Positions 1-34,975 of a stretch of 42,038 bases of DNA are shown here, in pieces (the first letter of the stretch is position 1; each line of letters opens with the position of its first letter). The translations under genes were made by a program, and so were the position numbers. Source of the DNA: Kiritimatiellia bacterium (GTDB lineage Bacteria; Verrucomicrobiota; Kiritimatiellia; CAIKKV01; CAITUY01); assembly GCA_044359285.1 (NCBI GenBank), contig JBIKMI010000001.1, positions 1 to 42,038 on the forward strand, in the 5' to 3' direction. A model generated the notes under the pieces. That model did not search any database. It saw only the letters and a program-made list of their open reading frames with translations, and was not told the DNA's origin.

Positions 1-851
1 ACCAACTCCCGCCCCCAATCTCCGTGCCGGTTCGAAAACTCGCTCCAGCCCTCACCTCGCTTCTGCTCCACCACCCTTATCACTTCCTCTACCGTCACCC
101 TCTTCAGCACCTGCCTGCGATCCGGCTGCTCCTTCGTCACTCGCCCAACCCAGCCCTTCACCTTTTCCATAAACTCCAGCGAGCCTATCGCCACTCGGCC
201 CCCAAAATCCTCATATCCTTCCGGCGAATCGCCCCGCGTCACGTGTCGCTGGACATACTCTCGATACGCCTTGCGCCCCCCGCCACGCTCCAGCAACTCC
301 CCCGTCACAAGCCATTCCGGAGCCGGACTATAACCCGCATACGCACCATATGAACTCCACCGGTACTCCTTCAGTTTCTTCAGCCGCCGCTTCACAGCCT
401 CCCGGTCTATCGGTGCCAGCCCCCGGCTTTCTGCACGGTTGCTCGCCTTCCCCAACCCCTCCTTCTTCATCCGAATGGGGTTGAGATGGACATACACGCT
501 GGCCGACATCGCCCAGGAGCCTTCCCCGTCTATCAGCACACTGGCAAACCGTCCTTGGAACACATGCCCCACCCGGTTCCGTCGCCGGTTAAACCATACG
601 CTGTAACTGACATTGAGCCACTGGATGGCCGCGCTGGCGTTCGCATTCGGCGTCCGAATCAACAGGTGATAATGGTTGACCATGAGCACATACGCATGAA
701 TTTCCACCCCGTACCGCTCGACCATCGCGGGTAGCAGTTCAAGAAAATGCTCATGGTCCCTCACGTCCTCGAAGATCAGCCTCCGCTCGATCCCTCGCGC
801 CGTCACATGGTACCATCCTCCCTCAACATCCACTCTTACGGGTCTTGCCAT
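1..851 (-). mobile_element. HUH/Y1 tyrosine transposase-like protein (IS200/RayT superfamily). The C-terminus is truncated by the window edge.
   Basis: Absent from the supplied ORF track because it runs off the window. Manual minus-strand translation from the ATG at 851-849 gives MARPVRVDVEGGWYHVTARGIERRLIFEDVRDHEHFLELL...YVLMVNHYHLLIRTP (HUH motif)...FQGRFAS...KEYRWSSYGAY (Tyr motif)...VTVEEVIRVVEQKRGEGWSEFSNRHGDWGREL. The frame stays open to base 3 (283 codons). The C-terminal part resembles the DnaA-C-like HTH found in long RayT-like proteins; that comparison is from memory. Confidence 0.75.
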
Positions 852-916
852 GCCGCCCCTTGTATCAGACCCACCCGCCAACTCGCAACCTTTATTTGTC
901 GCTTGTCGAGATGTGA

Positions 917-2208: not shown

Positions 2209-3078
2209 ATGCAAATACAAACATCCACGCTCAAGAGAATCGGGCAGATGGGTCTATGGGGACGGAGCGGAGTCCCCTCTCCCATGACCACGCCCCATTG
2301 CCACAACGATATCGAGATCAACTTTATGGAAAAGGGGCGCATCGCCTATCTCTTCCGTGATCGGCGCATCACAATCCAGGAGGGGCAGTGGGCGATCTTC
2401 TGGGGAGCCGTGCCGCACCGCCTGACCGAGGTTGCCCAACCGCGCATGCACTGGGTGACCGTCCCGCTGGCTCGGTTCCTCCAATGGACGTTGCCCTCAG
2501 CCTTCACGGAATCCATTCTGCATGGAACCTTACATACCCCGCCCGCCCTGCCTTGGGATCCTGCGCTGATAGCGGACTGGTGCCGCACACTCAGTCACCG
2601 TGAACTTGCCGGGGAACACGATGAAGCCATCGCATTGATGGAAATCGAGGCCCGGTTGTTCAGGATGGCACAGTCCTGGGTTCCGCCACGCTTGACCCAA
2701 CCCTCCCGGCCCTCCACCAACCCATCGAAGGTCGAAACGATGGCCTGCTACATCTCGCTACATTACCAGGATCCATTGCGGCTCGAGACCATCACCGGTT
2801 CAACCGGCCTGCACCGAAACTACGCCTGCGCCCTGTTCAAGTCGGTTTTTGGGGTGAGCCTGATGGACTATGTGATCCAGCACCGGGTGTGGCACGCGCA
2901 ACGCATGTTGTCCACAACCAACAATAAGATCATCGATGTCGCGATGGAGGCGGGATTCGGATCCCTCTCCCGCTTCTACGCGCAATTTTCCCGCCTTTGC
3001 GGCATGACTCCCCGCGCCTATCGCCAGCAGTGCCAGGCTCCGGGTGTGGCTACGGAATATCACAAGCGCAAAGACTGA
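2209..3078 (+). CDS. AraC family transcriptional regulator (cupin sensor domain plus HTH_18)
   Basis: The C-terminus (ISLHYQDPLRLETITGSTGLHRNYACALFKSVFGVSLMDYVIQHRVWHAQRMLSTTNNKIIDVAMEAGFGSLSRFYAQFSRLCGMTPRAYR) is a typical AraC double HTH. The N-terminus is cupin-like (PHCHNDIEINFMEKG). I chose the ATG at 2209 (MQIQTS...) because the track ORF start at 2017 would overlap the divergent gene. Confidence 0.85.
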   Translation: MQIQTSTLKRIGQMGLWGRSGVPSPMTTPHCHNDIEINFMEKGRIAYLFRDRRITIQEGQWAIFWGAVPHRLTEVAQPRMHWVTVPLARFLQWTLPSAFTESILHGTLHTPPALPWDPALIADWCRTLSHRELAGEHDEAIALMEIEARLFRMAQSWVPPRLTQPSRPSTNPSKVETMACYISLHYQDPLRLETITGSTGLHRNYACALFKSVFGVSLMDYVIQHRVWHAQRMLSTTNNKIIDVAMEAGFGSLSRFYAQFSRLCGMTPRAYRQQCQAPGVATEYHKRKD

Positions 3079-3156
3079 TTGCCAGCACGCCACCCGGAGC
3101 ACGCATCGGGGTCACGGCACGCATCCCGCAGCACCCCGGACGCCTAACATCACCGA

Positions 3157-6100
3157 CTATTTCTCGCTGGCCGCCCTGATCCTGGGCGAGCAAATCGCCG
3201 TCAACAGCAATCCCAGTACCACCGCCCCCGCCACCACCGAACCCAGCAACCGGCCCCACCATCCGCTTGACGCCTTGAATTCAATGGCCATCTCACTGTC
3301 GGGGTGAATTTGCAGTTCACGGTGAAACGCCAGATGTTGGCCCAGGATCGGCATCGTGATCCGGATCGGATTCGCCCGAACCTGCGCTGCCGCCTGCTGT
3401 TCCAGCAGCTTGTCGGCCACCATGTTGAGATTGCCGATGTCCTTCGCATCCATTTGCTGCTCCACCTGCCGCCCGTAATCCGCCGTCCATTCGCCCTCCA
3501 CGAGCTGCCGGACAGGGGCGTTGGCCGCCAGACCTTGCGCCGACTCATCCTCATCCTGCACGTTTCGGGCCTTCTTGAGCGCCGACCGCCGGTTGTAGAA
3601 ACCCACGACCGCCTGTTGGCGCATCAGGTTGCGGTATTGAATCCGGGCGTCTTCGTTCAGGCCCTGCTGACCTTGGGAAAATACCACCGCCTCCTTCAAG
3701 GCCTGTTTGGCTTGCGCCTGCTTGCCTGCTTTCCAGAAGGTCTCTCCCTGCTTCAGCACCTCCTCCGCCCTGGCATTGTAGGCCAGCATCGCGTTCCGCG
3801 TTTCCTGCTCGTAGTTATATGTCACCACGCCATCCTGATGCCACTCGGGCCTGTGTAGCAGTGTCCCGCCAAACCCATGATAGCGATAGCCGGAGGGCAG
3901 GTACACGTCCCAGCGCACATCCGTCAACGGCACATTAAAGCGCGGCCCCTCTAGGCGCTGCCGCCCGAACCAGTGTCCCTTGCCCGCCGGGGTCGCATAG
4001 GTCAACTCCACCGCCGCCTCACCCGTCGTCCGGACCGACTCCAGCGGCACCAGCAGCTTCCCGTCCTTTTTCAACGGCATCACCGCCGCCCCGTTGACAA
4101 ACACCGACCACGCCACCGACCCCTCGGGCAGCACGGTTTCCAGCGCCCTCAGGCTTCCCGCCTGCATCTGTATCACCACCCGCGTCACCCGCTGGCCGTC
4201 CTCCGATTCCACCGTCGTCAACCGCACCGACTCCACCCGCGCCGGCAGCATCTCGGCTGAATCATGCCGCACCACCGACAGGGCCAGAGCATAATCCGCT
4301 CGCGTCGTCCGATAACACAGGATCGCGTCCGAGAGATCCCCAGCGCCGAACGTCCCCGGCACACTCCTCGCGTCGTCCGGATACAGCCCGTCGGGAACCC
4401 CGGTGGGCTTTACCTGCAATCGCCCCGCGGCAAATACGACCACATATCCTTTCTGTGAATCAGCCCCCACCGTCTGGACCGGCGCCATATCCATCCCCGC
4501 CGCCTTCGAATCCACCGGCTGCTGGTAGCTGACGTCCAACGCATAGCGGTTTTCCACCTTGCCCTGCAGTTCAACCTCCCAGAGCCCCTGCGCCTTGTCC
4601 ACTTCGCTGACTTTGGCAATGTTCCGCCCGGAAACCGTCAGCGACACCCCTTTAGCCGGGCTCTTGAACCGGAACACCTTCACGCCCGCCTGGTCGATCT
4701 TGTACTGAACGAAGCACCTCCCATGGATCATGCCCTCGGAAATATCGGCCCGCTGGAGCAGATCGGCCCGCACCACCGGCGCCAGCGTCTCGGTCTTCAG
4801 CGTCACCGACCAGTCTGGCCGCAGCAACCGGTAGGCCAGATATCCTGGCTGCTCGATCCCCAGTTCTTTCGGATGCACTTCGCTAACCCCGTCCCGCTCA
4901 TGCGTCAGGAACCGTACGCCCCGCTCTCCCGACACCGCCAGGGTCCCCACATGCTTGACCGCATCCCGCACGCCAATCCTCGGCACCTTGACCAGCGCCT
5001 CGACACCCTTCTCCATCCGTCCCAACACCACATTGAGATTCCGCACCCCCAACGCCTGCTTGTTGAAGTGCACAACCACCCCGCGCCCGCCTTCCTTGAC
5101 CTCGTCCCAGTGGCTCACATCGTCGCCTGTCAGCGTCTCGATGTCGAACCGGTCAGGCAGATCCAGCCGCAGATCAAAGACACCCGCGCGGTTGATGGTG
5201 ACGGCCAGCCGCGAAGTCAGCACCAGTCGCTCGTCCGAGATGTCGAGACTGGCGTCTTCCACCACTCGCACTTCCGGCAGCACTGGTTCGGCATGCACCG
5301 CTGCCGATACCGGCAATTCATGATATCGGTAGGCCAGTTTGATCTCGGGTAACCCCGTGTATACTGCCCGCTTCTGCAATATCGGCACGCTGTCCTTGGA
5401 GAAATCGCTGACGTTCATCCGGCTGACGCCCTTCAGCGACGCCTCGTCAACACGCAGTTGGACCCCGTTCCCCGCCGCCAATGCAATACTCCCCCTCTGG
5501 CGCGCACAGCCTTCCACGACCGGCGCCATGACCACCACATCATATGGCAGGCCTTCCCGCGCCATCTGCGTGGTTAATGTCACCGCCAAATCGCCGCTCA
5601 CAGGCTTGTCCAGAAGGGCCTCGACCATGCGCGTGTCGGCGTCGAACCGCCACGTCACCAGACCCGGCGCCTCAACCGCCGTCACGCTGCTGCCTTCCGG
5701 AATCCTGTACCGCAGTGCCTGGATTTCGCCCTGCGCAATCTGGTACCGCGCCACATGGGTCATGCTCAGCAGGCCGGGCGATACCACGGCATACGTCTGC
5801 AAATCGCAATAGAACAGCGCCCGCTCCAGCCTGGTGGCCCGCTCCCGCGGCTGCCAGACAATCTCGGCATCGGATGCGTCGTACAGCAGCATCACCGCCG
5901 TTGTCCGTCCCTCGCGGTCCGCTACGTCAAGGCGCGCCGCCTGCTCGGAACTCACCGACCAGCCGCCAGACGGAATCGTCAGCTTCACCTCGTTCTTCAA
6001 GTGCGGCGGCAGGCTTAAAGACAGGCGCCACGCGCCGCTGCCGCCACTGACCGTTGCAATTCCCGAGAACTTGATCTCACGCCGCCCTGCCTTCCGCAAC

Positions 6101-9100
6101 GCGACCGAATACCCGTTGGTATCCGCCGTCAGACTGGACCAGCGGGGATCAAGCGATGAACCCGTCAGCACAATGTTTGCCGGGAAGACCTGGAAACTTA
6201 TCGGCTTGTCGCAATCAACCTTGAGCGTCAGCTCAAGCCTGGCAATCCCTTCCCGTTCACGCAGGGGGTCCGGCGCCTCAATCTGCAATTCCGCTGACCG
6301 GATGTCGCTGGCCGTGGCCGGCGTTGCCACTGCCGCGGCCTCCACCCACGGCCACGCCAGGCATGGCACGGCCGCCAGCACGGTCATGAACATCAGTAAC
6401 CCAATCCGGATTCCACCCTCCGTCCCCGCGCCCGAACGGTTCCCAGCCCCCTGCGGCATCGTCGCAAACGGTGGCGGCATCGTCTCATCATCCCGCTTCA
6501 CACGGTCCGCCACGGTTGCGCGCTTGCCGGCGCCCCTGCGGTAGACGCCCCGTAACAACGCAACCCAATATACCAGGGGCATCACGACCATCAGCCCCGC
6601 CGCCGCCACATTCACCACCATGGGAATAACCGCCACCCCCCACAGGGTCACCGTTAACCCCAGCGCCACCCACACCGGTTTCCGTTTCCGGATCAATGCC
6701 CACAGGGTCAGTCCTGCCCCGGCCACGCCGCCCAGCAACAGCCGGACCATGCCTCCGCTTCCTCCCATCCAATGGGGAACCACCCGGATCTGGACCGCCA
6801 GCTCGCGATCGGACAGCGTCACGGACTTGGTGAATTCCACCTGCCGCGATACCCCGCTATCCCCGCCAGTCACATCAAAGACAGCCCCTGCCAGCGGATT
6901 AAGCCCAGCCAGGATCACCACACAGGCAATCAAGCCGATGATTAAGGTTGTAATCACAAGCCCCACAGCCGCCGCCGACCCTATCCCGTTTCTCCCGATC
7001 ACATAGGCGCACCCTGCCGTCATCAGCGCAAACATCAACGCCGCCGCCAGGATACCCCTTCCCGTTTGCCAAACCCCCGCCACCATCCGGCCCGCCGCCT
7101 CGCATACCGCCGTCAACCCCACCCCCGGCATCGGCGGCGGCGCCATGTTCCCGCCGGACGGCAGCAGTGAGAGCGTCTCCGGACCGGTCAGCACCCATCG
7201 CGCAAACACCGACTGCGCTATCGAGACCGGCGACCGGAACGTGTGCGACGAGAACCACTTCATCTTCGGATACCCCTCGGCATACGTCAGATCCACACGC
7301 AACGGCGTATTGGCATCCAACAGCCGTTTCATGGGAACCAGCAGCATCCCTTTCCCGTCATCCAGGACGCGCACCACTTCGCTGTCCACCTTGGCCGACC
7401 ACAACGCCGCCGTCTTCGGCAACGTCACCCCCAGGAATTGCTGCGCGGTGTTCTTCACGAAATACGTCGCCTCGGTCACCGCTTCCCCATCCCGGCTGAT
7501 CCTCGTCTGAAGCGTGATGTGATCCGCCACATGGTCCAACAAAGCCTGGGTTCCGATCCGCCGTACCGCCATCTTGATCACATGGGGAATCCCGACGCTC
7601 TTGTATGCCTTGAGGACCGGATCATTGACCAGCAGCGCATACTCTCTGGGCAACTCCTCCGGCGCAATCCCGATCACCGCCGCCTCACGCTTCGATTCCG
7701 GCTCGAACGCCAGACTGGCCGGCCCTGCAATCGCCACGTAGCCAACCTCGCTGGCGGCATTCACCGCCTCTACTCCGCCCGCGGTCAATTCCGCCCCCTC
7801 ATACGCGAACGGCTGGTCATAGGTCATCAGCAACGTATAGTCACCTAGCACCTTCTCCTGCAGCGACACCGTCACCAGTTCGCCTTCCCGTTCCCACCCG
7901 CGGATATCTCTTCCGGTAAAATCAACATTCTGGCAGGTCGCAGGCACCTTTACCACGAACCGGCGAACCGGGGCCCCCTCAATCCGGCACGTCAGCGTCA
8001 CACTGCCATAGAGCGCGCCTTCCCCGACCGACACCAGATGGAACAGCTCCGCATGCATCGCCACATCCGCCTGTTCCACCAGAACCTGCAAATCCCACCC
8101 CGGATCCTTGAACCGATAGGCCCTCTGCGCATCCGGCGTCCGGAACGGCACCGAGCCCGTATGCACTTCGGTCAATCCCGCCGCCTTACCCTCCTTCAGC
8201 CGTACCCCTTTTTCCGCCCGCAGCACCACATACCCGCGCTCCACCCGGGCGTCGCGCACCTTCAACCGCGGCACCGTGAACAACGCGCATCCGTCGTTCC
8301 ATGTTCGCTCCATCCGCACCGACAGTAGCGTATGACCGAGCACCGCCTCCTTGAGTGTAACCACAATCTGCCGCCCCGCCGCTGTCTCGCGTACGTCATA
8401 ATCAGCCACGGCGGCCCCCTGCACCTGCGCCACCGACCACCCCGGCACCGTCTCCAGCACCAGATCCCGGGTCGGGGCCTCGCGCACATCCACGTCCAAA
8501 GCCGTATCCACCGTCACCCCGTTATCCTCGTAGGACACCGTCACCCGGTCATCCGCCGTCAACACCGTCACCACATCCTCTGCGGCGATCCGCATCTGGA
8601 ACGGAAGGTGCGCATATTGGTACGCCAGAACAGACCGCGTGGGCAGGGCCACCGCGGCCTCTGTCAGTTTGGGGAACGCCGCCGCATCCACCTGATTCAA
8701 CCCCGCCGACTTGTCGACCAGCAACTTGATCGCGCTGTCCGTTCCCATCAGCAGGAACCCGCTCGCCCGGATGACATCGCGCGGCACAATCACCGGCATA
8801 TCAAAGCGGCACGGGAACGCCGCCAACACCCGCTCCCCCTCGATACGTAGCGTATAGACCTTTTCCTTGGGCCGGCTGAGACTCACTTTCAACAGGCGCT
8901 CGCCGGTCGGCAGCGTCTCCGTACGCCATTCCCGGATGTCTTCCCCTGTCACCTGAGTCACGTTTAACAGCTCGGGCAACGCCAGCGTGGCAGAATCCAT
9001 CACCCCCTGGATGATCCGGTAACTGAACACGGTGTTCATCTTCAACGCCCCGACCCCCGCCACCGCAACCGTCCGCCCATCACAGGCCACCGCCAGTTCA

Positions 9101-9642
9101 CCTTCCAGTTTCTGCACCTGGGGTTTCCATCGGACATCCACCGGGGCCCCCGGCGCCAGGAAGACTTCCGCCTCCGTCCCGCCTCCCGCCACCGGCCGCT
9201 TCGCCACCGGCACCGCCTCGCCGAATTGCATCTCAAGGTCGTCACGGTCGGACGTCATCGTTAATCGCCGGATCACGCTGCCCGGCACCGTAAACGACGC
9301 CTTACGCCATTCTCCCTGCCGGTCCGGTGTCACCGCAAAAGAGAACGTCATGGCCTGCTCGCCCCGCGAGGCAAACCGCACGGAATACATCGTCCCCTCC
9401 CGGTCAAGGGATACCCCCCGAGGCAGGGTCCCCTCCATGAACACCACCTTGCCATCGGCCAGCGGCAGCGTCGCCCCCGCCTGGGCAACATCCACCTTGA
9501 CCGCCATCGTGAACGTCACATTCTCCCCCTTGACTCCACCCGACACTTCAAGCGATTTGACGGTGATCTCCGGCCGGCTCTCCGCCATCGCATTCACCAT
9601 CGCCATCATCACCACCGCGCCTGCCAGGAATAATCTCTTCAT
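3157..9642 (-). CDS. Giant (2161 aa) secreted, polytopic membrane protein of unknown function with two paralogous ~800-aa extracytoplasmic modules
   Basis: N-terminal signal peptide MKRLFLAGAVVMMAMVNAMA. Hydrophobic cluster of about 5 TM helices at residues 862-1035. Basic linker (YRRGAGKR...VKRDDE). Second signal-like helix IRIGLLMFMTVLAAVPCLAWPWVEAAAVA at about residues 1078-1105. Module B (residues 1106 to about 1900) aligns by eye with module A. K/Q/A-rich helical region and a C-terminal TM helix (LLGSVVAGAVVLGLLLTAI). Confidence 0.85.
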   Translation of the reverse strand: MKRLFLAGAVVMMAMVNAMAESRPEITVKSLEVSGGVKGENVTFTMAVKVDVAQAGATLPLADGKVVFMEGTLPRGVSLDREGTMYSVRFASRGEQAMTFSFAVTPDRQGEWRKASFTVPGSVIRRLTMTSDRDDLEMQFGEAVPVAKRPVAGGGTEAEVFLAPGAPVDVRWKPQVQKLEGELAVACDGRTVAVAGVGALKMNTVFSYRIIQGVMDSATLALPELLNVTQVTGEDIREWRTETLPTGERLLKVSLSRPKEKVYTLRIEGERVLAAFPCRFDMPVIVPRDVIRASGFLLMGTDSAIKLLVDKSAGLNQVDAAAFPKLTEAAVALPTRSVLAYQYAHLPFQMRIAAEDVVTVLTADDRVTVSYEDNGVTVDTALDVDVREAPTRDLVLETVPGWSVAQVQGAAVADYDVRETAAGRQIVVTLKEAVLGHTLLSVRMERTWNDGCALFTVPRLKVRDARVERGYVVLRAEKGVRLKEGKAAGLTEVHTGSVPFRTPDAQRAYRFKDPGWDLQVLVEQADVAMHAELFHLVSVGEGALYGSVTLTCRIEGAPVRRFVVKVPATCQNVDFTGRDIRGWEREGELVTVSLQEKVLGDYTLLMTYDQPFAYEGAELTAGGVEAVNAASEVGYVAIAGPASLAFEPESKREAAVIGIAPEELPREYALLVNDPVLKAYKSVGIPHVIKMAVRRIGTQALLDHVADHITLQTRISRDGEAVTEATYFVKNTAQQFLGVTLPKTAALWSAKVDSEVVRVLDDGKGMLLVPMKRLLDANTPLRVDLTYAEGYPKMKWFSSHTFRSPVSIAQSVFARWVLTGPETLSLLPSGGNMAPPPMPGVGLTAVCEAAGRMVAGVWQTGRGILAAALMFALMTAGCAYVIGRNGIGSAAAVGLVITTLIIGLIACVVILAGLNPLAGAVFDVTGGDSGVSRQVEFTKSVTLSDRELAVQIRVVPHWMGGSGGMVRLLLGGVAGAGLTLWALIRKRKPVWVALGLTVTLWGVAVIPMVVNVAAAGLMVVMPLVYWVALLRGVYRRGAGKRATVADRVKRDDETMPPPFATMPQGAGNRSGAGTEGGIRIGLLMFMTVLAAVPCLAWPWVEAAAVATPATASDIRSAELQIEAPDPLREREGIARLELTLKVDCDKPISFQVFPANIVLTGSSLDPRWSSLTADTNGYSVALRKAGRREIKFSGIATVSGGSGAWRLSLSLPPHLKNEVKLTIPSGGWSVSSEQAARLDVADREGRTTAVMLLYDASDAEIVWQPRERATRLERALFYCDLQTYAVVSPGLLSMTHVARYQIAQGEIQALRYRIPEGSSVTAVEAPGLVTWRFDADTRMVEALLDKPVSGDLAVTLTTQMAREGLPYDVVVMAPVVEGCARQRGSIALAAGNGVQLRVDEASLKGVSRMNVSDFSKDSVPILQKRAVYTGLPEIKLAYRYHELPVSAAVHAEPVLPEVRVVEDASLDISDERLVLTSRLAVTINRAGVFDLRLDLPDRFDIETLTGDDVSHWDEVKEGGRGVVVHFNKQALGVRNLNVVLGRMEKGVEALVKVPRIGVRDAVKHVGTLAVSGERGVRFLTHERDGVSEVHPKELGIEQPGYLAYRLLRPDWSVTLKTETLAPVVRADLLQRADISEGMIHGRCFVQYKIDQAGVKVFRFKSPAKGVSLTVSGRNIAKVSEVDKAQGLWEVELQGKVENRYALDVSYQQPVDSKAAGMDMAPVQTVGADSQKGYVVVFAAGRLQVKPTGVPDGLYPDDARSVPGTFGAGDLSDAILCYRTTRADYALALSVVRHDSAEMLPARVESVRLTTVESEDGQRVTRVVIQMQAGSLRALETVLPEGSVAWSVFVNGAAVMPLKKDGKLLVPLESVRTTGEAAVELTYATPAGKGHWFGRQRLEGPRFNVPLTDVRWDVYLPSGYRYHGFGGTLLHRPEWHQDGVVTYNYEQETRNAMLAYNARAEEVLKQGETFWKAGKQAQAKQALKEAVVFSQGQQGLNEDARIQYRNLMRQQAVVGFYNRRSALKKARNVQDEDESAQGLAANAPVRQLVEGEWTADYGRQVEQQMDAKDIGNLNMVADKLLEQQAAAQVRANPIRITMPILGQHLAFHRELQIHPDSEMAIEFKASSGWWGRLLGSVVAGAVVLGLLLTAICSPRIRAASEK

Positions 9643-9693
9643 GATGAACTCCTTCCATCCATCTATACGTCTGTTTCACACACTGCTCAGGTG

Positions 9694-9716
9694 GCGTTCG
9701 CCGTCCCGGCGAACGC
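9694..9716 (-). other. Intercistronic stem-loop (10-bp perfect stem, 3-nt loop)
   Basis: gcgttcgccg-tcc-cggcgaacgc, located between the anti-sigma stop (9722) and the giant-gene start (9642). No U-tract follows it on the minus strand. Confidence 0.4.
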
Positions 9717-9721
9717 ATTGC

Positions 9722-12271
9722 CTACTTCATCAGCCGCTGCGTCGCCGTCGCCATCTTCACCAGATCTTGAACCTGCCGGTCTACCTTCATCTCCATCCCA
9801 ACGGGCCCCAGTACCGCCACAACCTCGGCCATCCCCGTCGCTTTGGAAATCGGATCGTTCCGCAAGGCGCCCGCCAGTTCCGCCACACCCGCCGCCAACC
9901 GGAACCGCACTGGAGCCACTCCGAAATCCGCATACCGGTCCCCCGCCCGGATGGGCTCTGCCAGTTCCTCCACCTGCCCGGTCGCCACATCCTGCCACCG
10001 AACCCGGACCACCCCCAACGCATCCCCGGTATTCCCGGCCAGTTCAACCTCATATAACGCCGTCGCACTCTGCCCTGACCCCACCTCTCCTGCATCGACC
10101 CGGTCATCTCGGAATTGTTCTTTTGTAAGTTGCCGATTCTCGTATCCGAGCTGACGATAGGACTTCACGCGGCTGGGATCAAACTCCACCTGTATCTTCA
10201 CATCCTTCGCAATAACCTGGAACGATGCCGAAAGATCATCCACAAACGCCCGCCGCACCTCCGCCGCCGAATCGATGAACCGGTAGATGCCATCCCCTTT
10301 GTCCGCCAGGGATTCCAACATGGCATCGTTGTATGTCCCCTGCCCGAACCCGTAGACCGAGCAGTAGATTCCCTGCTTCCGGTAGCTTTCCACTTGCTTC
10401 AGGATTTCATCCGCCGTCGCTGCCCCCAGATTGGCAACCCCGTCGGATAACAGAATCACTCGGTTAAGGCATCCACTCCCGAAGTGCCGTGCCGCCGTCT
10501 CATAACCCAATCGGAGCCCTCCCTCAAGGTGGGTTGACCCTTGAGTTTCCAGGCCCGCCACTGCCGCCAGTACCGCCGTCTTGTCCGTTATTGGAGTCAT
10601 GTCTAACACTAGCCGGGCACCCGATCCGAAGGTCACAATGGCTAGACGGTCCGCCGGCCCTAATCCATCCGCCAGCATGCCTATTGCCTGCTTCATCAGC
10701 CCGATCCGGTCCGGCGTATTCATTGAGCCGGAGGTGTCCACCACCAGCGTCAACACCGATGCCTTCTGCTGGTCCCGCCCCAACACTTTCCCTCTCACCC
10801 CGATCCTCAGCAACTCCAACCCCGGCCGGAACGGTGATCGCGCCCGGTCGGCAATGACAGCGAACGTCTTCTTCTCCGGCGCCCGGTAATCCTGATCAAA
10901 GGCGTTGATGAACTCCTCCACCCGCACCGTTGCCGGTGTCGGCAACCGCCCGCTCAGCAAAGCCCGCCGCGCCATCGTAAAGGACGCCGTATCTACATCG
11001 ATGGCAAAGGTAGAGAGCGGCATCGCCGCGGCGTCGATAATTTCGTTGTACTGGATCGGCACCTCGACATCTGCGTTCACCATCAGTAGTTCGTCAGAGG
11101 CTTCCTTCAGTTCCTGCGCCTTCTCACAACGCTTCTCGTCGACCAACTGCGATTCGCCGGCAAGCTTATTAAGGGCTTCGATCTTCTGGGGAGCGATGAC
11201 ACGGGACTGCCGTTCGACTCTGGCAAGGCAACGTTGATTCTCCTTCACCTTCATAACGCCAGCACCCAAGCTCATCAACCTCTTCCTCTCAGGCGCTGCT
11301 TCCAGGCGATCACCTTCGTCCCTCTTGCGATCAGCACATTCCATTTCCACACTTGGCACCCCGTCTTCCTTTGCCATGTCACAGGCCAGTGCCGATTGCA
11401 TTTGCACTAGTGACGGCTTTTCTTCTGTTGCTTCCTGCACCGCTTGACATGCCTGTCCTGCCTGTCCTGCCTGCTTGAATTGCACCTCCAGTACTACTTT
11501 CTCTACCTTGTCCTCTTGTTTTTGCTCGATTGGCACCATTGCCATCATTTGCTCCGCGATTTTCTCTCCGGAATCAGTTGCTGCCTTCTCGGCATTATAA
11601 ACCTTCCTCCCGCCAAAATAGGTGCGCGTTTCTATGCGTCCAGCCGCCGCACGGCTGACCTCCCCCACCTGCTCTTGAGGCGTCGACAATGGACCAATCT
11701 CATCCAGCAGCATGGTGGCTGGCGTGCCATCCCGCCCATCCATTCCAGCCAGCAGCATCCTTTGGGAATGCCTTTCCGGTGCCGGCGGTGTTGTTCCTGG
11801 CCTTGTAGCGTCTGGAGCTTCTTCCGATAATCCGCTGACATCACGATCGGCAGACGCACTTGACTCAACTACGGCACAGGCCGGCGCCATATCCTTCATC
11901 CTCTGCTCACAGCGCACCGACACATCCCGGGCTTTCGATCTGCTCGTACTCAGCGCCGGCATCAGCATCCCCGCCAGCCCACCCAGCGCCAACACCAGTG
12001 CCGCCGCCTTTAATAACCACCATCCGGTTCCGGCCTTCTGCTTCCGCGATAGCATGATCCGCCCGCGATGCAAATCATCCAGCCTCAAGGTCTGCTGACG
12101 GGCCGCCGTGAACCCCTCCACCAGCACCCCCAGCGTCCCCTCCATCTCCTCCCGCATGGCCCGGCAAGACGCACACTGTTGCACATGCGCCCCGACCTGT
12201 TCCGCCACAGTCGGAGCCAGGTCCCCGCGAAGGTCATCCACTAGCAAAAGTTCCACTTGATCGCATTTCAT
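9722..12271 (-). CDS. Anti-sigma factor (zf-HC2) fused to a YfbK-like von Willebrand factor A domain protein
   Basis: N-terminal zf-HC2 motif HVQQCASCRAM. One TM helix (WWLLKAAALVLALGGLAGMLMPAL). About 300 aa of acidic, Q/K-rich linker. vWA N-terminal region (STFAIDVDTASFTMARRALLSGRLPTPATVRVEEFINAF). MIDAS motif VVDTSGSM. DUF3520-like tail. The preferred ATG at 12271 (MKCDQVELLL) overlaps the sigma-factor stop as ATGA. Confidence 0.8.
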   Translation of the reverse strand: MKCDQVELLLVDDLRGDLAPTVAEQVGAHVQQCASCRAMREEMEGTLGVLVEGFTAARQQTLRLDDLHRGRIMLSRKQKAGTGWWLLKAAALVLALGGLAGMLMPALSTSRSKARDVSVRCEQRMKDMAPACAVVESSASADRDVSGLSEEAPDATRPGTTPPAPERHSQRMLLAGMDGRDGTPATMLLDEIGPLSTPQEQVGEVSRAAAGRIETRTYFGGRKVYNAEKAATDSGEKIAEQMMAMVPIEQKQEDKVEKVVLEVQFKQAGQAGQACQAVQEATEEKPSLVQMQSALACDMAKEDGVPSVEMECADRKRDEGDRLEAAPERKRLMSLGAGVMKVKENQRCLARVERQSRVIAPQKIEALNKLAGESQLVDEKRCEKAQELKEASDELLMVNADVEVPIQYNEIIDAAAMPLSTFAIDVDTASFTMARRALLSGRLPTPATVRVEEFINAFDQDYRAPEKKTFAVIADRARSPFRPGLELLRIGVRGKVLGRDQQKASVLTLVVDTSGSMNTPDRIGLMKQAIGMLADGLGPADRLAIVTFGSGARLVLDMTPITDKTAVLAAVAGLETQGSTHLEGGLRLGYETAARHFGSGCLNRVILLSDGVANLGAATADEILKQVESYRKQGIYCSVYGFGQGTYNDAMLESLADKGDGIYRFIDSAAEVRRAFVDDLSASFQVIAKDVKIQVEFDPSRVKSYRQLGYENRQLTKEQFRDDRVDAGEVGSGQSATALYEVELAGNTGDALGVVRVRWQDVATGQVEELAEPIRAGDRYADFGVAPVRFRLAAGVAELAGALRNDPISKATGMAEVVAVLGPVGMEMKVDRQVQDLVKMATATQRLMK

Positions 12272-12774
12272 GGCCGATCCCCCCCATTCTGGACAGCACT
12301 CGTCGGCTTCACCCATTTCCCGAGCTTCCGCACCGCATGATGTAGCAGGCACCCCACATTCCCCTCGCTCCGTCCCGTGATCCTGCTGATTTCCTGATAC
12401 GAAAGCCCCTCCTGCAGCCGTAGCAACACCACCTGTCGTTCCGCTTCAGGCAACCGCCCCACCGCCCCCATCACCACTTCCATCCGAGCATCCTCCGTCA
12501 TGCCCGGCGGGTCAGCGGCCGCACAGGCTTCGGCCTGTCTCGCATGCAGGAAGAACCGCCGTTTTTCCCGTCGCAAATGATCAATCGCCTCGTTATGAGC
12601 CACACGATACAGCCATGACCTGATGGAGGCCGACGGCTGCATCCCCGGCTGCCATTGTCTGAATAGCTTGATGAAGACATTCTGAACCACATCCTGGGCA
12701 GCATGGGAATCGCCAACAATTCCGATGGCATACCGCAACAGGCAGCTCTCGTGCGTGGCAATCAGGTGTTCCAT
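12268..12774 (-). CDS. ECF (sigma-24 type) RNA polymerase sigma factor
   Basis: Region 2: AAQDVVQNVFIKLFRQW...WLYRVAHNEAIDHLRREKRR. Region 4: LSYQEISRITGRSEGNVGCLLHHAVRKL. The ATG at 12774 is preceded by GGAG; the track start at 12849 has no SD. Confidence 0.85.
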   Translation of the reverse strand: MEHLIATHESCLLRYAIGIVGDSHAAQDVVQNVFIKLFRQWQPGMQPSASIRSWLYRVAHNEAIDHLRREKRRFFLHARQAEACAAADPPGMTEDARMEVVMGAVGRLPEAERQVVLLRLQEGLSYQEISRITGRSEGNVGCLLHHAVRKLGKWVKPTSAVQNGGDRP

Positions 12775-13026
12775 ATCCTGCTCCCCTGAATCGAGAGCGT
12801 CTTTTTCAATTGAGCTTCCGCGACGTTCTTTCACCGGCCAAGTCCTCATAAAAAAGCGCTTCTATTGATACAACGTGTGTCGGCCCCATAATCTTCAGAA
12901 AACGTTTGTTCACTCATCAAGGCGGCAGATGGCGCGATTCCACGCACTTCCCACCGCCAGGAAAGAAGCGCATTCGGCCATGTACTACCCGCTCTCTCAT
13001 GGTCTTACCCCAGCCAACGGCCGGAG

Positions 13027-14178
13027 TTATGGCAGGAATTTACCGCGTTTCAGCTTCTCTGGCAGGTAGGTCTCCAGTACGTAGTTCAGGCCGTGCTTGG
13101 CAAAGGCCTGCTGCTCAACACGGACGCCCATTTTCAACATCTGATTGAGCGTGTCCTGCCACTCCTTGTGGTGCTTGATGAAGGGGTCGTTTTTCAAGGC
13201 GTCCTTTGCCCGCTTGATATCCACCTCTTCCAGCGGATGCGTGGCATCCTGCAAGCCGAAATCCAGGATGTCCTGCGGGGTCACTCCCAAATAACGGGCC
13301 TGCGGCACACAGAAGAACTTATTGATGTGAGCCGCCTGCCCGGAGCCCACCTTCAAGGTCCGGTAGATGTTGCAATACCCGTAGGGATCCCCGTCGGTAA
13401 ACACCAGCACCGGCAACTTCTGATCGTCGGCGAGCCGCCGGATAAAACGCCGGCAGGCCCGGGTCGGCACCCCGCTCATCGAAATGAGCACACACTTGGC
13501 GGTTTCATAATAGCGGTGATGCACCAGACGTTGAAAGAGCGAGGAGGTCTCGATCACCAGGATGAACTTGGCGGTGGACTCGAATTTCAGATGCTCCACC
13601 CGTGACGGAATACTCCAGGCGCCTGAGCCCAGCTTGGCACAGTTGATCTTCACCACCTCGCCGGTGGCGGGATTCTGGTCAATCACGATCAACGGACCGG
13701 TCACATCGCCGCCCCGCTCCTCGGGAATGTAGCCGATCTGCTCGCGGTTGACCCCCAGCATGGCCTCCATGTCGTCCAGCAGCGTATCGCTTTCAGGCTG
13801 CTCCTCGAACCGGCATTCACCCCAGCTCTTGCTGTTGTAATAGATCTCACGCTTTCCGGCGATGTCGTTCTTGTCGATCAAGTCCTTCTTGGTCGTTGCC
13901 AGCAACCGCATGGTCTGGGCAAAGGCCTTGACGGTATTGTAGCTGAGCGTTCGCGTCGATGTCTTGCCCCGGATCTCAAAGTAGCCGGCCTTGGGGTCAT
14001 ATTTCACGTTGGCCAGTGACCGGATGGGAAACTTCATCGAGGGCTTCTTCATCTTCTTGATGATGTCGTTATAGACATCACGGCCGACGGAAAGGATTTT
14101 ATCCGCCACGCCCTGCCGGGAAATCATGAGCGACGCCTCGCCTGTGCTCTTGGTTTTTCTGGTTGTCTTTTTTGCCAT
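13027..14178 (-). CDS. top6A: DNA topoisomerase VI subunit A (Spo11/Top6A family)
   Basis: 383 aa. Putative catalytic Tyr context (GKREIYY). Toprim motifs LVIETSS and VFTDGDPYG. The C-terminus (GVRVEQQAFAKHGL) is typical of Top6A. Confidence 0.9.
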   Translation of the reverse strand: MAKKTTRKTKSTGEASLMISRQGVADKILSVGRDVYNDIIKKMKKPSMKFPIRSLANVKYDPKAGYFEIRGKTSTRTLSYNTVKAFAQTMRLLATTKKDLIDKNDIAGKREIYYNSKSWGECRFEEQPESDTLLDDMEAMLGVNREQIGYIPEERGGDVTGPLIVIDQNPATGEVVKINCAKLGSGAWSIPSRVEHLKFESTAKFILVIETSSLFQRLVHHRYYETAKCVLISMSGVPTRACRRFIRRLADDQKLPVLVFTDGDPYGYCNIYRTLKVGSGQAAHINKFFCVPQARYLGVTPQDILDFGLQDATHPLEEVDIKRAKDALKNDPFIKHHKEWQDTLNQMLKMGVRVEQQAFAKHGLNYVLETYLPEKLKRGKFLP

Positions 14179-14188
14179 AAATGCCTCG

Positions 14189-15877
14189 TCAGGTTTCCAG
14201 ATGCGACCGCTCCAACATGGTTTGCAGGGTCTTCACGACACGCGCCTCATCCTTATCGGGCAAATCGAGAATGTCCTTCAGTCCGAGCGCCAGATGCGGG
14301 ATGTACTTCACGATATAGGAGCGCTTGCGCTCCGCCTCATGCTCCCGGTTGCGCCGGTTGAGGTGGACGGAGAGGCGTCGTCCGCATTCCTGCATACAGA
14401 AGGTAATCTCGCGGATAATCTCGGGGTAATGGGCAATCGCCTCCTTGCTCTCGCTCGTGAAGGGCACCCACACACTGGCAATATGCACCATCATCACCGC
14501 GGGCCCGATGGGCAGTGAGCCACGGGGTTGCGGCAACCCGTAATTCTTCCAGTTGACGGCGGTAATGGCCTTGGTGATGGCGCAGGCCCCTCCCATATAA
14601 AGCAGGGGAACCCGGTTGGCAAAACGGAGCAGCCGCACGGGATCCTCGGCACTGAGCCCCTCATTCTCGCCCGGCTTGGCAAAGGCCATGCCGACCTCGA
14701 CCTGGAAGGGATTCCCGCGGTACACCGTGGGATCGCGGGTGACGGCGGTGATGAACTCCGCCTGGATCTCCTTGGCCAGTCCCCCCTTGATCAACTCCTC
14801 ACCAATGGGCGAGAGGCAGTCCGTCGGCGGACGCATCAGCTTCGTTTCATTCACCGCCTTGAACAGGACTTCAATCTCGCGGTTGGCGATCCGGCGCGGA
14901 TTTGCCTTGGGCTCCAGCCCGGCCCGTGTGCAGATGTCCAGGGCCGTCTGACTGCTGACCCGCGAGAAATCCTCCGACAGGGCGCCTCGCAGGGTGTGCG
15001 ATTCGGTGTCACGCAACATCTGCATCAACATCCCCAGCTCGACCCCATGGGGATGCGGCTTGATCTCAACCGGCGGCGTGGGCAGTTGATTCGCCAGTCG
15101 CATCCAGGACGTCCACTGTCCCTCCACCAGCGGCGCCGCGGTCTCCTCCCCGGCCTCCCCCTCCTTATTCATCAGGTTGATGCGGTAATGCAGTTGCAGA
15201 TGCGGATTGGAGATCAGGCACTGGCGCAGGAACTCATCCACCGAGAGCTTACCCCGGAAATATTGTGCCTCCATCTCAATCATCACGGAGGTCCCATGCG
15301 CCAGAGCCTCCGGCGCCACCGGGACCCCATCCGCATCGATACGCGGAAATGTGGGGTGCCAATCCAGCTCCACATCCTTGAGAATCGACGGGGTGTTTTT
15401 CCGGGTATCGATCTGGACCTCAATGTGATGGGCCTGCTTCGCCCGCGGCAGTTTGGAAAGGATCCGCGTCGCCTTCCCGGTCGTCAGCTGCCCGTACATG
15501 CCGGCCGCACTGATCCCGATCCCCTGCTGACCGCGTGACATCCGTAACCGGTGGAACTTGGAGCCATACAACAGTTTGGCGAAGATCCGGGGCACTTGCT
15601 GGCGCATGACACCCGGCCCGTTATCCGTCACCTCCATCCGGAAGCGCTTGCCGCCGGACTGGGTGATTTCGACGCTGATTTCCGGCAGGATGCCCGCCTC
15701 TTCGCAGGCGTCCAGCGAGTTGTCCACCGCTTCCTTGACGGCCGTCAGCAGGGCCTTGCGCGGGCTGTCGAACCCGAGCAGGTGCCGGTTTTTCAGGAAA
15801 AATTCGGACACCGAAATCTCGCGCTGTTGACGCGACATCGTTTCCGCGGTGGCCTTGGTTGCAGGGGGTTTTGCCAT
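14189..15877 (-). CDS. top6B: DNA topoisomerase VI subunit B (GHKL/Bergerat ATPase)
   Basis: EFFLKNRHLLGFD, N-box KEAVDNSLDA, G1 box VTDNGPGV, KLLYGSKF, G2 box SRGQQGIGISAA. The ATG at 15877 is preceded by GGGAGA. It ends 10 nt upstream of top6A. Confidence 0.9.
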   Translation of the reverse strand: MAKPPATKATAETMSRQQREISVSEFFLKNRHLLGFDSPRKALLTAVKEAVDNSLDACEEAGILPEISVEITQSGGKRFRMEVTDNGPGVMRQQVPRIFAKLLYGSKFHRLRMSRGQQGIGISAAGMYGQLTTGKATRILSKLPRAKQAHHIEVQIDTRKNTPSILKDVELDWHPTFPRIDADGVPVAPEALAHGTSVMIEMEAQYFRGKLSVDEFLRQCLISNPHLQLHYRINLMNKEGEAGEETAAPLVEGQWTSWMRLANQLPTPPVEIKPHPHGVELGMLMQMLRDTESHTLRGALSEDFSRVSSQTALDICTRAGLEPKANPRRIANREIEVLFKAVNETKLMRPPTDCLSPIGEELIKGGLAKEIQAEFITAVTRDPTVYRGNPFQVEVGMAFAKPGENEGLSAEDPVRLLRFANRVPLLYMGGACAITKAITAVNWKNYGLPQPRGSLPIGPAVMMVHIASVWVPFTSESKEAIAHYPEIIREITFCMQECGRRLSVHLNRRNREHEAERKRSYIVKYIPHLALGLKDILDLPDKDEARVVKTLQTMLERSHLET

Positions 15878-15903
15878 GTGACTATCTCCCAAATACGGTC
15901 AGC

Positions 15904-22265: not shown

Positions 22266-23615
22266 TTATGTACGCTTTACCGCGCAACATCGTGCATCGA
22301 GTTTATTATTAGCCCTGAATTGTTCACACAGTCGCACATACACCCCGGTCATTTTTCCGGCAATGACTTCAATGTCAAAATGCTGACGGACAGCGGTTGC
22401 CCCCGCCTGGCTCATCCGGCGCCACCGGGCTTCATCCGTCAGCAGCGACTCAAGTTCCCGGACCAGCGCATCCGGATCAGCCGGATCATAACACACGCCT
22501 CCTCCGGTCATCCCGATCAACTCCGGCGAGGCACCCAGGCGCGGCTGAACCACCGGCACCCCGCTGGCCATGGCTTCCAGCATGAACATTCCGAACGCCT
22601 CGGGTTTTGACATCGGCACCGCCAGCACCGTCAGTGACTGCAAGAACTCCCGCTTGGTCTTCCGGTCGAAGGCCGGACAGAATTCAACCTCAGCCAGCCA
22701 TTCAGCCGCCCCCAGCTTCTGCTTGAGTCCGGCCAGAAATCCATCATCCTCCGGAGTCTTCCCGCCCATGATTTTCAGTGTCACCCGTCCCGCCAACCCC
22801 CGCTTCCGGATCGCGATGAAGGCATCCACCAGCGTCCCCAGTCCGAGGGAGGCCGACATCCGCGAAAGGTAGCCGATCACAGGCTTTCCGGGAACCCACT
22901 TCGCCTCGCCGTAGGACTCTGCGGTGACCCCGATCGGGATGACATGAAACAGGTCGGCGGGAATGCCTTTCAACCGGTCCTGCATTACCCGGCTGTAATA
23001 CTGGCTGACCGGGAAAAAGGCGGCGATATCACGCGCCTTCTCCGACATCAGTGCCCAGGCTTGCCGGGCCGCTTCCGGATTCATGGCATCAATCCAGGAA
23101 TCCTCATCCTGCAGGGTGCAGACCACGGGAACCCCCACTTCCCGGCGGAGCCGGCCGGCCAGCCCGAGCAGGAGCGCGTTGGACAAGTGAACCAGATCCG
23201 GCTTCTCATGGAGAACCAGCCAGGAAACGAGGCGATCCAACTCCTCTTTCTGTCCGCCTTCCTCCCCTTTCAATACCGACAGGGTCATCTCCTCCAGACC
23301 ACGGGCGTGGGTGGTGCCCGCCCGTCTGGAAACCCAGGTCAGAAGCCGGCGCGAATCCAGCCGGCTCCGCAGCCAACGGGGAAGCCGCCTGAAAGCGGGC
23401 AGCATCTGGGCCAGATAAACCCCCACGGCTCCATAAAAAATCGGCACCTGTGGGGCCCCCATATCCTCCCCTTCCGTCAGCAGGGGAAGATACATCGGCA
23501 CCAACGTCACCTCATGCCCCTGGGCCCGCAAGGCCATGACAAGCTCCTTGTCACGCATGCAGTTCTGACAATAGAAGACGTCACCGGTTCCCGGGATGAT
23601 ATGCACAATTTTCAT
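22266..23615 (-). CDS. Glycosyltransferase family 4 (GT-B fold)
   Basis: MKIVHIIPGTGDVFYCQNCMRDKELVMALRAQGHEVTLV...; C-terminal GT1 domain with the EAFGMFMLEAMASGVPVV motif. The ATG at 23615 overlaps the upstream stop as ATGA. Confidence 0.8.
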   Translation of the reverse strand: MKIVHIIPGTGDVFYCQNCMRDKELVMALRAQGHEVTLVPMYLPLLTEGEDMGAPQVPIFYGAVGVYLAQMLPAFRRLPRWLRSRLDSRRLLTWVSRRAGTTHARGLEEMTLSVLKGEEGGQKEELDRLVSWLVLHEKPDLVHLSNALLLGLAGRLRREVGVPVVCTLQDEDSWIDAMNPEAARQAWALMSEKARDIAAFFPVSQYYSRVMQDRLKGIPADLFHVIPIGVTAESYGEAKWVPGKPVIGYLSRMSASLGLGTLVDAFIAIRKRGLAGRVTLKIMGGKTPEDDGFLAGLKQKLGAAEWLAEVEFCPAFDRKTKREFLQSLTVLAVPMSKPEAFGMFMLEAMASGVPVVQPRLGASPELIGMTGGGVCYDPADPDALVRELESLLTDEARWRRMSQAGATAVRQHFDIEVIAGKMTGVYVRLCEQFRANNKLDARCCAVKRT

Positions 23616-27567: not shown

Positions 27568-27584
27568 AGACACCCTCACCCCAG

Positions 27585-27607
27585 CCCTCTCCCCTGAAGG
27601 GAGAGGG
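27585..27607. repeat. GC-rich stem-loop (9-bp stem, 5-nt loop), REP-like intergenic element
   Basis: ccctctccc-ctgaa-gggagaggg in the 62-nt gap between the propeller gene and the NuoEF gene. Read as protein it gives PLPSGERAGVRV, the kind of spurious peptide produced by a widespread GC-rich intergenic repeat type; that comparison is from memory. Confidence 0.5.
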
Positions 27608-27629
27608 AGCAGAGTTGTGTTTGCCGCTT

Positions 27630-34974: not shown

Positions 34975-34975
34975 C

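Follow-up and report, generated by a model that had tools for sequence, protein, structure and literature searches.

The window analysed here comprises 42,038 nt of contig JBIKMI010000001.1 from a Kiritimatiellia bacterium, and all coordinates refer to it. On its reverse strand lies a three-gene cassette encoding an extracytoplasmic function (ECF) sigma factor, an anti-sigma factor that ends in a von Willebrand factor A (VWA) unit, and a 2161-residue inner-membrane protein, hereafter the giant. The stop codon of the sigma gene and the start codon of the anti-sigma gene overlap as ATGA, as a preliminary description of this DNA had noted, and in at least 8 of 21 related loci mapped the sigma open reading frame (ORF) likewise ends 4 nt past the start of the anti-sigma ORF. 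The same description had treated the three genes as a functional unit, a view that is supported by the conserved gene order and the promoter reported below.

The linkage of the three genes was assessed in 80 loci oriented on the giant gene and drawn from species-representative genomes (one per GTDB species); fetched loci are given L-numbers where they have to be told apart. A VWA anti-sigma gene lies directly upstream of the giant gene, and on the same strand, in 46 of the 50 loci that contain the N-terminus of the giant together with at least 1.5 kb of upstream DNA. Where 5 kb or more of upstream DNA was available (37 loci), an ECF sigma gene is present in 36. Of the four apparent exceptions to the linkage, two are coordinate artefacts, and those in L016 and L075 are real. 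The gene order is kept down to approximately 25% identity of the giant, and was seen in Kiritimatiellia, Lentisphaeria/Victivallales, Opitutae, Akkermansiaceae-related Verrucomicrobiota, Phycisphaerae and Planctomycetia. All-against-all clustering of the flanking ORFs returned only these three families as conserved, the next cluster being found in 6 loci, and the neighbours of the cassette in the window (an AraC regulator, topoisomerase VI, ProC and others) are unrelated. The preliminary description had named the absence of conserved linkage in other genomes as the outcome that would speak against it; to judge from the present counts, the linkage of sigma factor, VWA anti-sigma factor and giant is instead real and specific.

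Paired promoter motifs were enumerated across the 270 nt located 5′ of the sigma gene in 42 loci. The pair TGAAG(A)-N16/17-(A)CGT stood out: 15 of these loci have it, 108–126 nt ahead of the aligned sigma core, preceded by a T-rich stretch and with ACGT(C/T) as the −10 element, and looser versions of the motif add approximately 8 loci. Over all fetched DNA the motif has a background of 0.069 occurrences per kb per strand, corresponding to ~0.8 occurrences expected anywhere as compared with the 15 observed. The copy in front of the window sigma gene is the sole intergenic one in the 42 kb, and it displays the arrangement associated with ECF autoregulation, an AAC-like −35 element and a CGT-containing −10 element 5′ of the sigma factor's own gene. 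The autoregulated promoter that had been expected upstream of the sigma gene was thus found as a predicted motif with a conserved position. A scan for sigma-70 promoters gave no more sites than expected by chance, and a terminator scan revealed no terminator after any of the three cassette genes.

In most of the 15 motif-bearing loci a Shine–Dalgarno sequence and a start codon follow ~35 nt past the −10 element. Because this spacing recurs across loci, the sigma gene probably starts at GTG 12834 (GAGGA-N8-GTG) and not at ATG 12774, the start that had been assigned previously (168 residues); the ORF itself stands. The only other exact match to TGAAG-N16-ACGT in the 42 kb is located inside the giant ORF (5411–5435, reverse strand), and two or more matches were obtained in 4 of 100 shuffles. 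This copy is probably due to chance; alternatively, it may be an internal promoter ahead of the second large module of the giant (module B, Table 1).

The preliminary description had also proposed looking for a promoter 5′ of the giant gene at 9642, and none was found there. As the giant has no motif of its own in the window and the spacers are mostly short, its gene is, on the reading of the sequence, co-transcribed with the sigma/anti-sigma pair. Across 56 loci, the motif is found ≤350 nt upstream of the giant in three, at a chance expectation of 0.025 per locus. Two of the three are L016 and L071, loci whose giant does not directly follow the anti-sigma gene. The respective copies read TCTGAAGAAACCCGCCCCGAGCCACGTCAT at −49 (L016) and TTTGAAGGTCCTGCCATCCACGGACGTCTT at −101 (L071). 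Of the three loci with a giant detached from the pair, these two have a motif in front of the giant itself, and L075 has no recognizable one. Since the detached giants of L016 and L071 bear the same motif as the sigma genes, the giant appears to be a direct target of the sigma factor. In combination, these data indicate that the cassette is very probably an ECF operon under autoregulation, the conserved target of which is the giant.

Table 1. Features of the sigma factor/anti-sigma factor/giant cassette, in window coordinates
Feature	Position	Strand	Remarks
ECF-type promoter (predicted)	12873..12897	-	−35 TGAAGA (12892-12897), 16-nt spacer, −10 ACGT (12873-12876)
Sigma ORF	12268..12849	-	ORF
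ECF sigma factor gene	12268..12834	-	188 aa from GTG 12834; probable start, from Shine–Dalgarno sequence and start codon
ATGA overlap, sigma stop/anti-sigma start	12268..12271	-	putative translational coupling
Anti-sigma factor gene, 849 aa	9722..12271	-	zf-HC2, one transmembrane segment, tether, YfbK-type VWA unit
zf-HC2 domain, residues 3-37, predicted cytoplasmic	12161..12265	-	PF13490, E 3.3e-5, 24.3 bits (cutoff 22.2)
Single transmembrane segment, residues 84-110	11942..12022	-	hydropathy scan
Periplasmic tether (predicted), residues 111-405 (295 aa)	11057..11941	-	charged, low complexity
YfbK-type unit (~440 aa)	9812..11056	-	vWF_A 406-489, VWA 507-667, YfbK_C 683-820
Adhesion-site motif DTSGS, residues 512-516	10724..10738	-	within the VWA domain
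10-bp GC-rich stem-loop in the spacer	9694..9716	-	no T-tract after it
Giant inner-membrane protein gene, 2161 aa	3157..9642	-	ORF
Sec-type signal peptide	9583..9642	-	MKRLFLAGAVVMMAMVNAMA, then E; direct reading, cleavage predicted
Module A, residues 23-840, periplasmic all-beta arm (predicted)	7123..9576	-	AlphaFold2 and Foldseek
Six predicted transmembrane helices, residues 863-1101	6340..7056	-	hydropathy and positive-inside rule
Module B, residues 1130-1940, second periplasmic all-beta arm (predicted)	3823..6255	-	paralogue of module A; AlphaFold2
Membrane-proximal periplasmic helical region (predicted), residues 1944-2086	3385..3813	-	long helices, model ma783eceb58f7 positions 838-980
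LNEDARIQ motif, residues 1995-2002	3637..3660	-	among the best-conserved short motifs of the family (LNEDARxQ); E1997 invariant
C-terminal transmembrane anchor (predicted), residues 2128-2155	3178..3261	-	followed by a short basic tail; hydropathy, AlphaFold2 model

The sigma factor contains Sigma70_r2 (residues 4–73, E = 7.5e-16) and Sigma70_r4_2 (residues 101–151, E = 3.9e-14) as its sole sigma domains, i.e. the combination of sigma-2 and sigma-4 at a length of about 170–200 residues that is typical of ECF (group IV) factors. It scores 87.7 bits against TIGR02937 (cutoff 42.9), and no specific ECF model exceeded its cutoff in the NCBIfam scan. The anti-sigma factor was described previously as a zf-HC2 domain joined to a complete YfbK-like VWA domain with a DUF3520-like tail, and this architecture was recovered in full, the tail corresponding to PF12034 (YfbK_C, formerly DUF3520). 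Its H29-x3-C33-x2-C36 motif, followed by a transmembrane (TM) helix, is that of class I zinc-binding anti-sigma (ZAS) domains; HxxxCxxC is kept in 36 of 48 homologues, part of the remainder being truncated by contig ends. In the C-terminal unit PF12450 (E = 1.7e-22), PF00092 (E = 1.1e-15) and PF12034 (E = 1.9e-33) follow each other in the YfbK order, all above their cutoffs. The D-x-S-x-S sequence of the metal ion-dependent adhesion site (MIDAS) is intact in all 48 homologues, 47 of which show the extended form with a following M. The nearest solved sequences to the VWA unit are VWA domains of anthrax toxin receptor 2 (CMG2), at E = 6.5e-5. Fusion of zf-HC2 to the VWA unit was observed mainly among the closest matches, the few named ones being metagenome-assembled genomes (MAGs) of the Planctomycetes–Verrucomicrobia–Chlamydiae (PVC) lineage.

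An acidic linker of ~300 residues had been reported between membrane and VWA unit. The linker is present, but at 18% D+E against 14.6% K+R its acidic excess is only mild. Among homologues this stretch spans 107–965 residues (median 384) and is charged and of low complexity throughout. Because its length varies while both ends of the anti-sigma factor stay constant, its behaviour is that of a tether. Further VWA-type anti-sigma paralogues are located on cassette-bearing contigs (L011:11509-14141, L015:1399-3884 and L071:236-4456), none of them followed by a giant and some with an ECF sigma gene of their own. VWA-gated ECF pairs seem to have diversified inside these three genomes.

The giant had been characterized as a two-module membrane protein, which is confirmed by the alignment of residues 74–837 with residues 1166–1932 (26% identity, E = 3e-53). 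Its signal peptide is predicted to be cleaved after AMA, before E. On the basis of hydropathy and the positive-inside rule, both modules as well as the region 1944–2127 are predicted to be periplasmic. The TM cluster between the modules has basic cytoplasmic loops (RNG, RKRKP and RRGAGKR among them) and one conserved periplasmic loop of 40 residues. Conservation, computed over 22 diverse relatives, is 0.5–0.6 in the periplasmic modules as compared with 0.26–0.4 in the TM cluster, the least conserved part of the protein. As the modules are better conserved than the cluster, the TM helices appear to be anchors and the function of the protein appears to be periplasmic.

AlphaFold2 models computed from 36-sequence alignments reached a predicted local distance difference test (pLDDT) score of 87.3 for residues 23–862 and 85.3 for residues 1107–2161. 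Approximately 58 strands are predicted per module, with no long helices in module A, and the second model continues past module B with long helices, a beta-hairpin and a TM helix. The predicted template modelling score (pTM) is low in both models (0.43–0.45), which fits a chain of beta-sandwich domains connected by flexible hinges.

The statement that the giant belongs to no nameable family held in scans with Pfam, NCBIfam and PADLOC models, none of which matched it, models of named adhesin and Bat families included; the PADLOC defence-system models did not match the anti-sigma factor either. Likewise, none of the 22 relatives has a Pfam match above cutoff (best Big_3_5, E = 0.098, 13.7 bits against a cutoff of 35.5), and a giant-family profile compared with PDB sequences gave spurious TM-segment matches only. 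The Foldseek comparison of the modelled modules that had been proposed was carried out against the PDB and placed ribophorin I first (module A, E = 5e-8; module B, E = 1.9e-8; probability 1.0, ~430 columns), followed by integrin alpha chains and legs, which align over 700–800 columns with both modules. Further matches comprise alpha-2-macroglobulins, among them the E. coli protein 5a42 (E = 5e-6, probability 0.51), inter-alpha-inhibitor heavy chain, mastigoneme, viral tail/DUF11 and pilus or adhesin proteins. For the ribophorin, integrin and macroglobulin matches the TM-scores are 0.13–0.30 and the identities 8–13%, and identity is about 9% overall. Since no TM-score exceeds 0.3 (modules against the PDB, and module B also against viral structures), these matches are attributable to a generic class of tandem beta-sandwiches, and the comparison yielded no family name. 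Homology of the giant to ribophorin, integrin or macroglobulin was rejected on the basis of these TM-scores and the lack of a profile match. The CxEQ thioester motif is absent from the giant sequence. Overall, the evidence points to an inner-membrane-anchored protein that serves in the periplasm as a scaffold or binding platform rather than as a transporter or enzyme.

A word-index search revealed approximately 100 clusters of relatives, with full-length members of 2100–2350 residues that are all annotated as hypothetical, in Kiritimatiellae, Lentisphaerae, Verrucomicrobia and Planctomycetes. In a genome scan with LNEDARIQ as the selected motif (one genome per GTDB species), at least 591 confirmed matches encode a relative of the giant; among the matches listed, the genomes closest to the window giant belong to Kiritimatiellia, or to Verrucomicrobiota in the GTDB sense. 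A HMMER search with a single-module profile against 1.84 billion representative proteins gave 10,406 matches at E ≤ 1e-3 and 3,715 at E ≤ 1e-30, the best 150 of which are all two-module proteins. The sequence of the window giant occurs identically in two metagenome assemblies, and the cassette was found in MAGs assigned to Pontiella, Lacunisphaera, Roseibacillus and Planctomicrobium as well as in Haloferula sargassicola. In nine loci from Verrucomicrobiota and Planctomycetota (L046, L047, L055, L063, L067–L069, L076 and L079) the giant is longer, at 2270–2410 residues, owing to an N-terminal extension of ~200–250 residues that constitutes a partial third stretch matching the module profile.

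Distant relatives are encoded by split gene pairs, in a Sumerlaeota MAG and on a second metagenome contig (L083:4613-15539 and L084:4580-17594). In these pairs a single-module membrane protein of ~1125–1142 residues is encoded directly upstream of a module-bearing protein of 2.5–3.2 thousand residues. The 1125-residue protein aligns end to end with the module profile (hhalign, E = 1e-57), and a word-index search seeded with a single-module distant relative returned only 8 unnamed proteins. Given these split pairs, and given that module B is preceded by a TM cluster within the protein and by a second helix of the signal-anchor type, the giant of PVC bacteria is best explained as a fusion of two adjacent genes of the single-module type. 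In L084 the split pair directly follows the flagellar export genes for FliI, FliJ, FliN, FliO, FliP, FliQ, FliR and FlhB on the same strand.

The spacer between the anti-sigma and giant genes is 79 nt long in the window and contains the 10-bp stem-loop that had been pointed out previously. The hairpin has a predicted stability of −28.7 kcal/mol (z = −3.2; none of 200 shuffles equalled it) and is identical in L001. It was rejected as a conserved element, as its sequence is not kept and it is gone in L017 and L022, which are ~80% identical. In about a third of the related loci the spacer is ≤36 nt long and the hairpin is missing; GC-rich hairpins past the anti-sigma stop codon recur in many other loci. 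No Rfam match was obtained at 2900–13100 (E up to 0.1), and neither the leader nor the spacer hairpin therefore corresponds to any known RNA element. Some spacers are filled by short tandem repeats, built from CAGACTT in L069 and from units resembling CGGACTCTT in L050 and GATCTGACC in L035, for which very stable structures are predicted (z down to −7.7).

Directly upstream of the cassette are genes for topoisomerase VI, an archaeal/plant-type enzyme that is uncommon among bacteria (13027–15892, reverse strand; subunit A, TOP6A/Spo11 Toprim, E = 1e-57; subunit B, transducer, E = 7e-58). A run of redox genes at 23612–33612 (reverse strand) encodes a NuoE/NuoF-like fusion (2Fe-2S thioredoxin-like, Complex1_51K and NADH_4Fe-4S domains), a Fer2_4/Fer4_20/pyridine-nucleotide oxidoreductase and two polyferredoxins; genes for two PQQ/BamB-like beta-propeller proteins (593 and 764 residues) are interspersed among them. 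The reverse strand further encodes, at 34225–36844 and 38368–39732, a TonB-dependent receptor next to a protein with a TonB C-terminal domain, and a GH30 glycoside hydrolase. An identical contig in Joint Genome Institute sample 3300044971 (L081:10677-11711) carries a Y1 (IS200-like) transposase gene two genes downstream of the giant, which in the window would run off the start (1–864, reverse strand).

With regard to known systems, the ECF classification 2.0 already lists anti-sigma factors combining VWA and DUF3520 as the distinguishing feature of ECF289, a group that stems from the old and scattered ECF20 (Casas-Pastor et al. 2021, PMC7826278). In ECF289 an anti-sigma factor with DUF3520 fused to VWA is encoded at position +1, as it is here, the likeness being one of anti-sigma architecture only; the main text of that paper mentions neither a giant downstream protein nor a PVC-wide cassette. 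The VWA class of anti-sigma factors is already known, whereas the giant family and the three-gene cassette appear to be undescribed, and neither is mentioned in the literature searched (YfbK, ECF289, ECF and anti-sigma factors of PVC bacteria, DUF3520). RseA, the partner of sigmaE, and RsiW, that of sigmaW, are single-pass ZAS anti-sigma factors under regulated intramembrane proteolysis. The present protein resembles them in its N-terminal HxxxCxxC domain, single TM segment and extracytoplasmic C-terminus, in its overlap and co-transcription with the sigma gene and in the predicted autoregulated promoter, but differs in the 295-residue tether, the 440-residue VWA unit and the lack of a linked protease or RseB-like partner. 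These C-terminal 440 residues show the full three-domain architecture of E. coli YfbK with an intact MIDAS; YfbK proteins are however stand-alone, whereas here the unit is fused to an anti-sigma domain. No functional study of YfbK was found in the literature searched.

Anthrax toxin receptor 2 binds a carboxylate of its protein ligand through the MIDAS metal. The VWA fold and the D-x-S-x-S MIDAS are shared with this receptor and with integrin I domains, and a common mode of action is suggested by analogy only; the relationship to CMG2 is remote, at about 23–27 bits. Ribophorin I/OST1, integrin alpha legs and the MG domains of alpha-2-macroglobulin are, like the giant, membrane-anchored arrays of beta-sandwiches, a likeness of fold class only. 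The giant has no Ribophorin_I, FG-GAP, A2M or MG Pfam match and no C.EQ thioester, and the window contains no STT3/PglB-type gene. Nor does the giant show Big, PKD or DUF11 repeats above cutoff, as would be expected of an Ig-repeat adhesin. Bat (Bacteroides aerotolerance) and MoxR-VWA clusters encode envelope VWA proteins beside large membrane proteins, and the cassette is similar in this respect. It differs by having a sigma/anti-sigma pair in place of a MoxR ATPase, DUF58, double-TM VWA proteins BatA/B, TPR protein BatC and BatD, and no BatD domain was detected with Pfam in the giant or its 22 relatives. In kind, the cassette is an ordinary module of ECF sigma factor, anti-sigma factor and target; what is unusual is the VWA unit of the anti-sigma factor and its PVC-wide pairing with a huge and abundant envelope protein family that has no annotation.

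On balance, we favour as explanation of the whole a self-contained autoregulated ECF signalling operon in which the giant is the conserved output and a docking switch may control the sigma factor. In such an operon the zf-HC2 domain would hold the sigma factor at the inner membrane, while one TM helix and the flexible charged tether would place the VWA head, with its intact MIDAS, in the periplasm. The giant, once its signal peptide is cleaved, would be anchored by six central and one C-terminal TM helices and would display two ~800-residue tandem beta-sandwich arms and a membrane-proximal helical domain in the same compartment. It is proposed, tentatively and at somewhat less than even odds, that the VWA head docks on the giant itself and thereby provides feedback control, possibly through the NEDAR motif; this binding is suggested by the linkage and by what MIDAS domains do elsewhere. 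The MIDAS metal would then engage an acidic residue of the giant, for which the invariant NEDAR motif is a candidate, the assignment of LNEDARIQ as docking site being speculation. The anti-sigma factor would be stable in the docked state. When the giant is scarce, damaged or occupied by a ligand of its own, the undocked head and tether would be open to periplasmic proteolysis, and intramembrane cleavage would next free the sigma factor, a proteolytic release that is assumed by analogy. Transcription of the operon would replenish the giant and reset the switch. A bolder version, in which the cassette is a lineage-defining envelope surveillance device of PVC bacteria and the giant an integrin-like, two-armed periplasmic ruler or mechanosensor read by MIDAS docking, appears improbable; if true, it would represent a mode of ECF sigma gating not described before.

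A number of observations weigh against the docking operon. The strict promoter motif is limited to Kiritimatiellia- and Lentisphaeria-like loci and is not found in most planctomycete and verrucomicrobial ones, the relatives with split pairs (Sumerlaeota and one other) have no sigma/anti-sigma pair, and L075 has a giant with neither the pair nor a recognizable motif. Furthermore, no site-1 or site-2 protease gene is linked to the cassette. The three-domain YfbK unit is common as a stand-alone protein of 500–700 residues in many unrelated phyla, and L011 and L015 carry paralogous sigma/VWA-anti-sigma pairs without a giant, from which it follows that the VWA head is not intrinsically coupled to the giant. 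Both of these last findings would also be expected if the VWA head sensed something else, for instance a protein from the envelope or the environment, a polysaccharide or some metal-dependent ligand, with the giant as an effector that the head does not contact. The highly variable tether, as for a head that merely has to reach the periplasm, points in the same direction, and the regulatory evidence fits this alternative as well as it fits docking. However, the VWA units of giant-linked anti-sigma factors are ~52% identical to each other as compared with 39–42% to unlinked paralogues from the same genomes, which suggests a dedicated orthologous group, and a strict pairing that persists at ~25% identity with nothing else conserved is typical of interacting partners. 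A giant that is output alone is considered only slightly less probable than docking.

The roles could also be reversed, the giant being a sensor or co-receptor that controls the stability of the anti-sigma factor while the main regulon lies elsewhere in the genome, in the manner of the outer-membrane transducer for FecR-type anti-sigma factors or of RseB for RseA. Two big periplasmic arms with conserved surfaces, next to poorly conserved TM helices, do resemble a binding platform, and the search for promoter copies covered ~42 kb of this genome only. Still, the giant has its own ECF promoter motif in two unlinked loci and is at least a target, and there is no other conserved neighbour, so that we regard a purely sensory role as distinctly unlikely. 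Even harder to believe is that the giant is part of some protective or adhesive system already known (a Bat/aerotolerance VWA complex, a bacterial alpha-2-macroglobulin or an Ig-repeat adhesin), with a function independent of the pair that it adjoins incidentally. The Foldseek matches to 5a42, inter-alpha-inhibitor heavy chain, integrin legs and pilus or adhesin proteins would be in line with such a system. They are nevertheless those of generic tandem beta-sandwiches, they are accompanied by no family match for the giant or its relatives and by no thioester motif, the window contains no MoxR, DUF58 or BatA–E genes, and the linkage and shared promoter oppose an incidental adjacency.

ECF sigma factors rank with the most abundant signalling systems of bacteria, and most groups have no known input or output. 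For the present system the output is pinned by comparative genomics to a single family of giant envelope proteins, which comprises thousands of sequence clusters and carries no family annotation, and the input is a sensor of the MIDAS-VWA type, the bacterial ligands of which are essentially unexplored. The PVC groups that carry it (Kiritimatiellia, Lentisphaeria, Verrucomicrobiota and Planctomycetota) are known for cell envelopes that are unusual and poorly understood, and they include genera with cultured members. The cassette thus offers a compact three-gene system for studying how a VWA domain may gate a sigma factor, and an entry to a large uncharacterized protein family.

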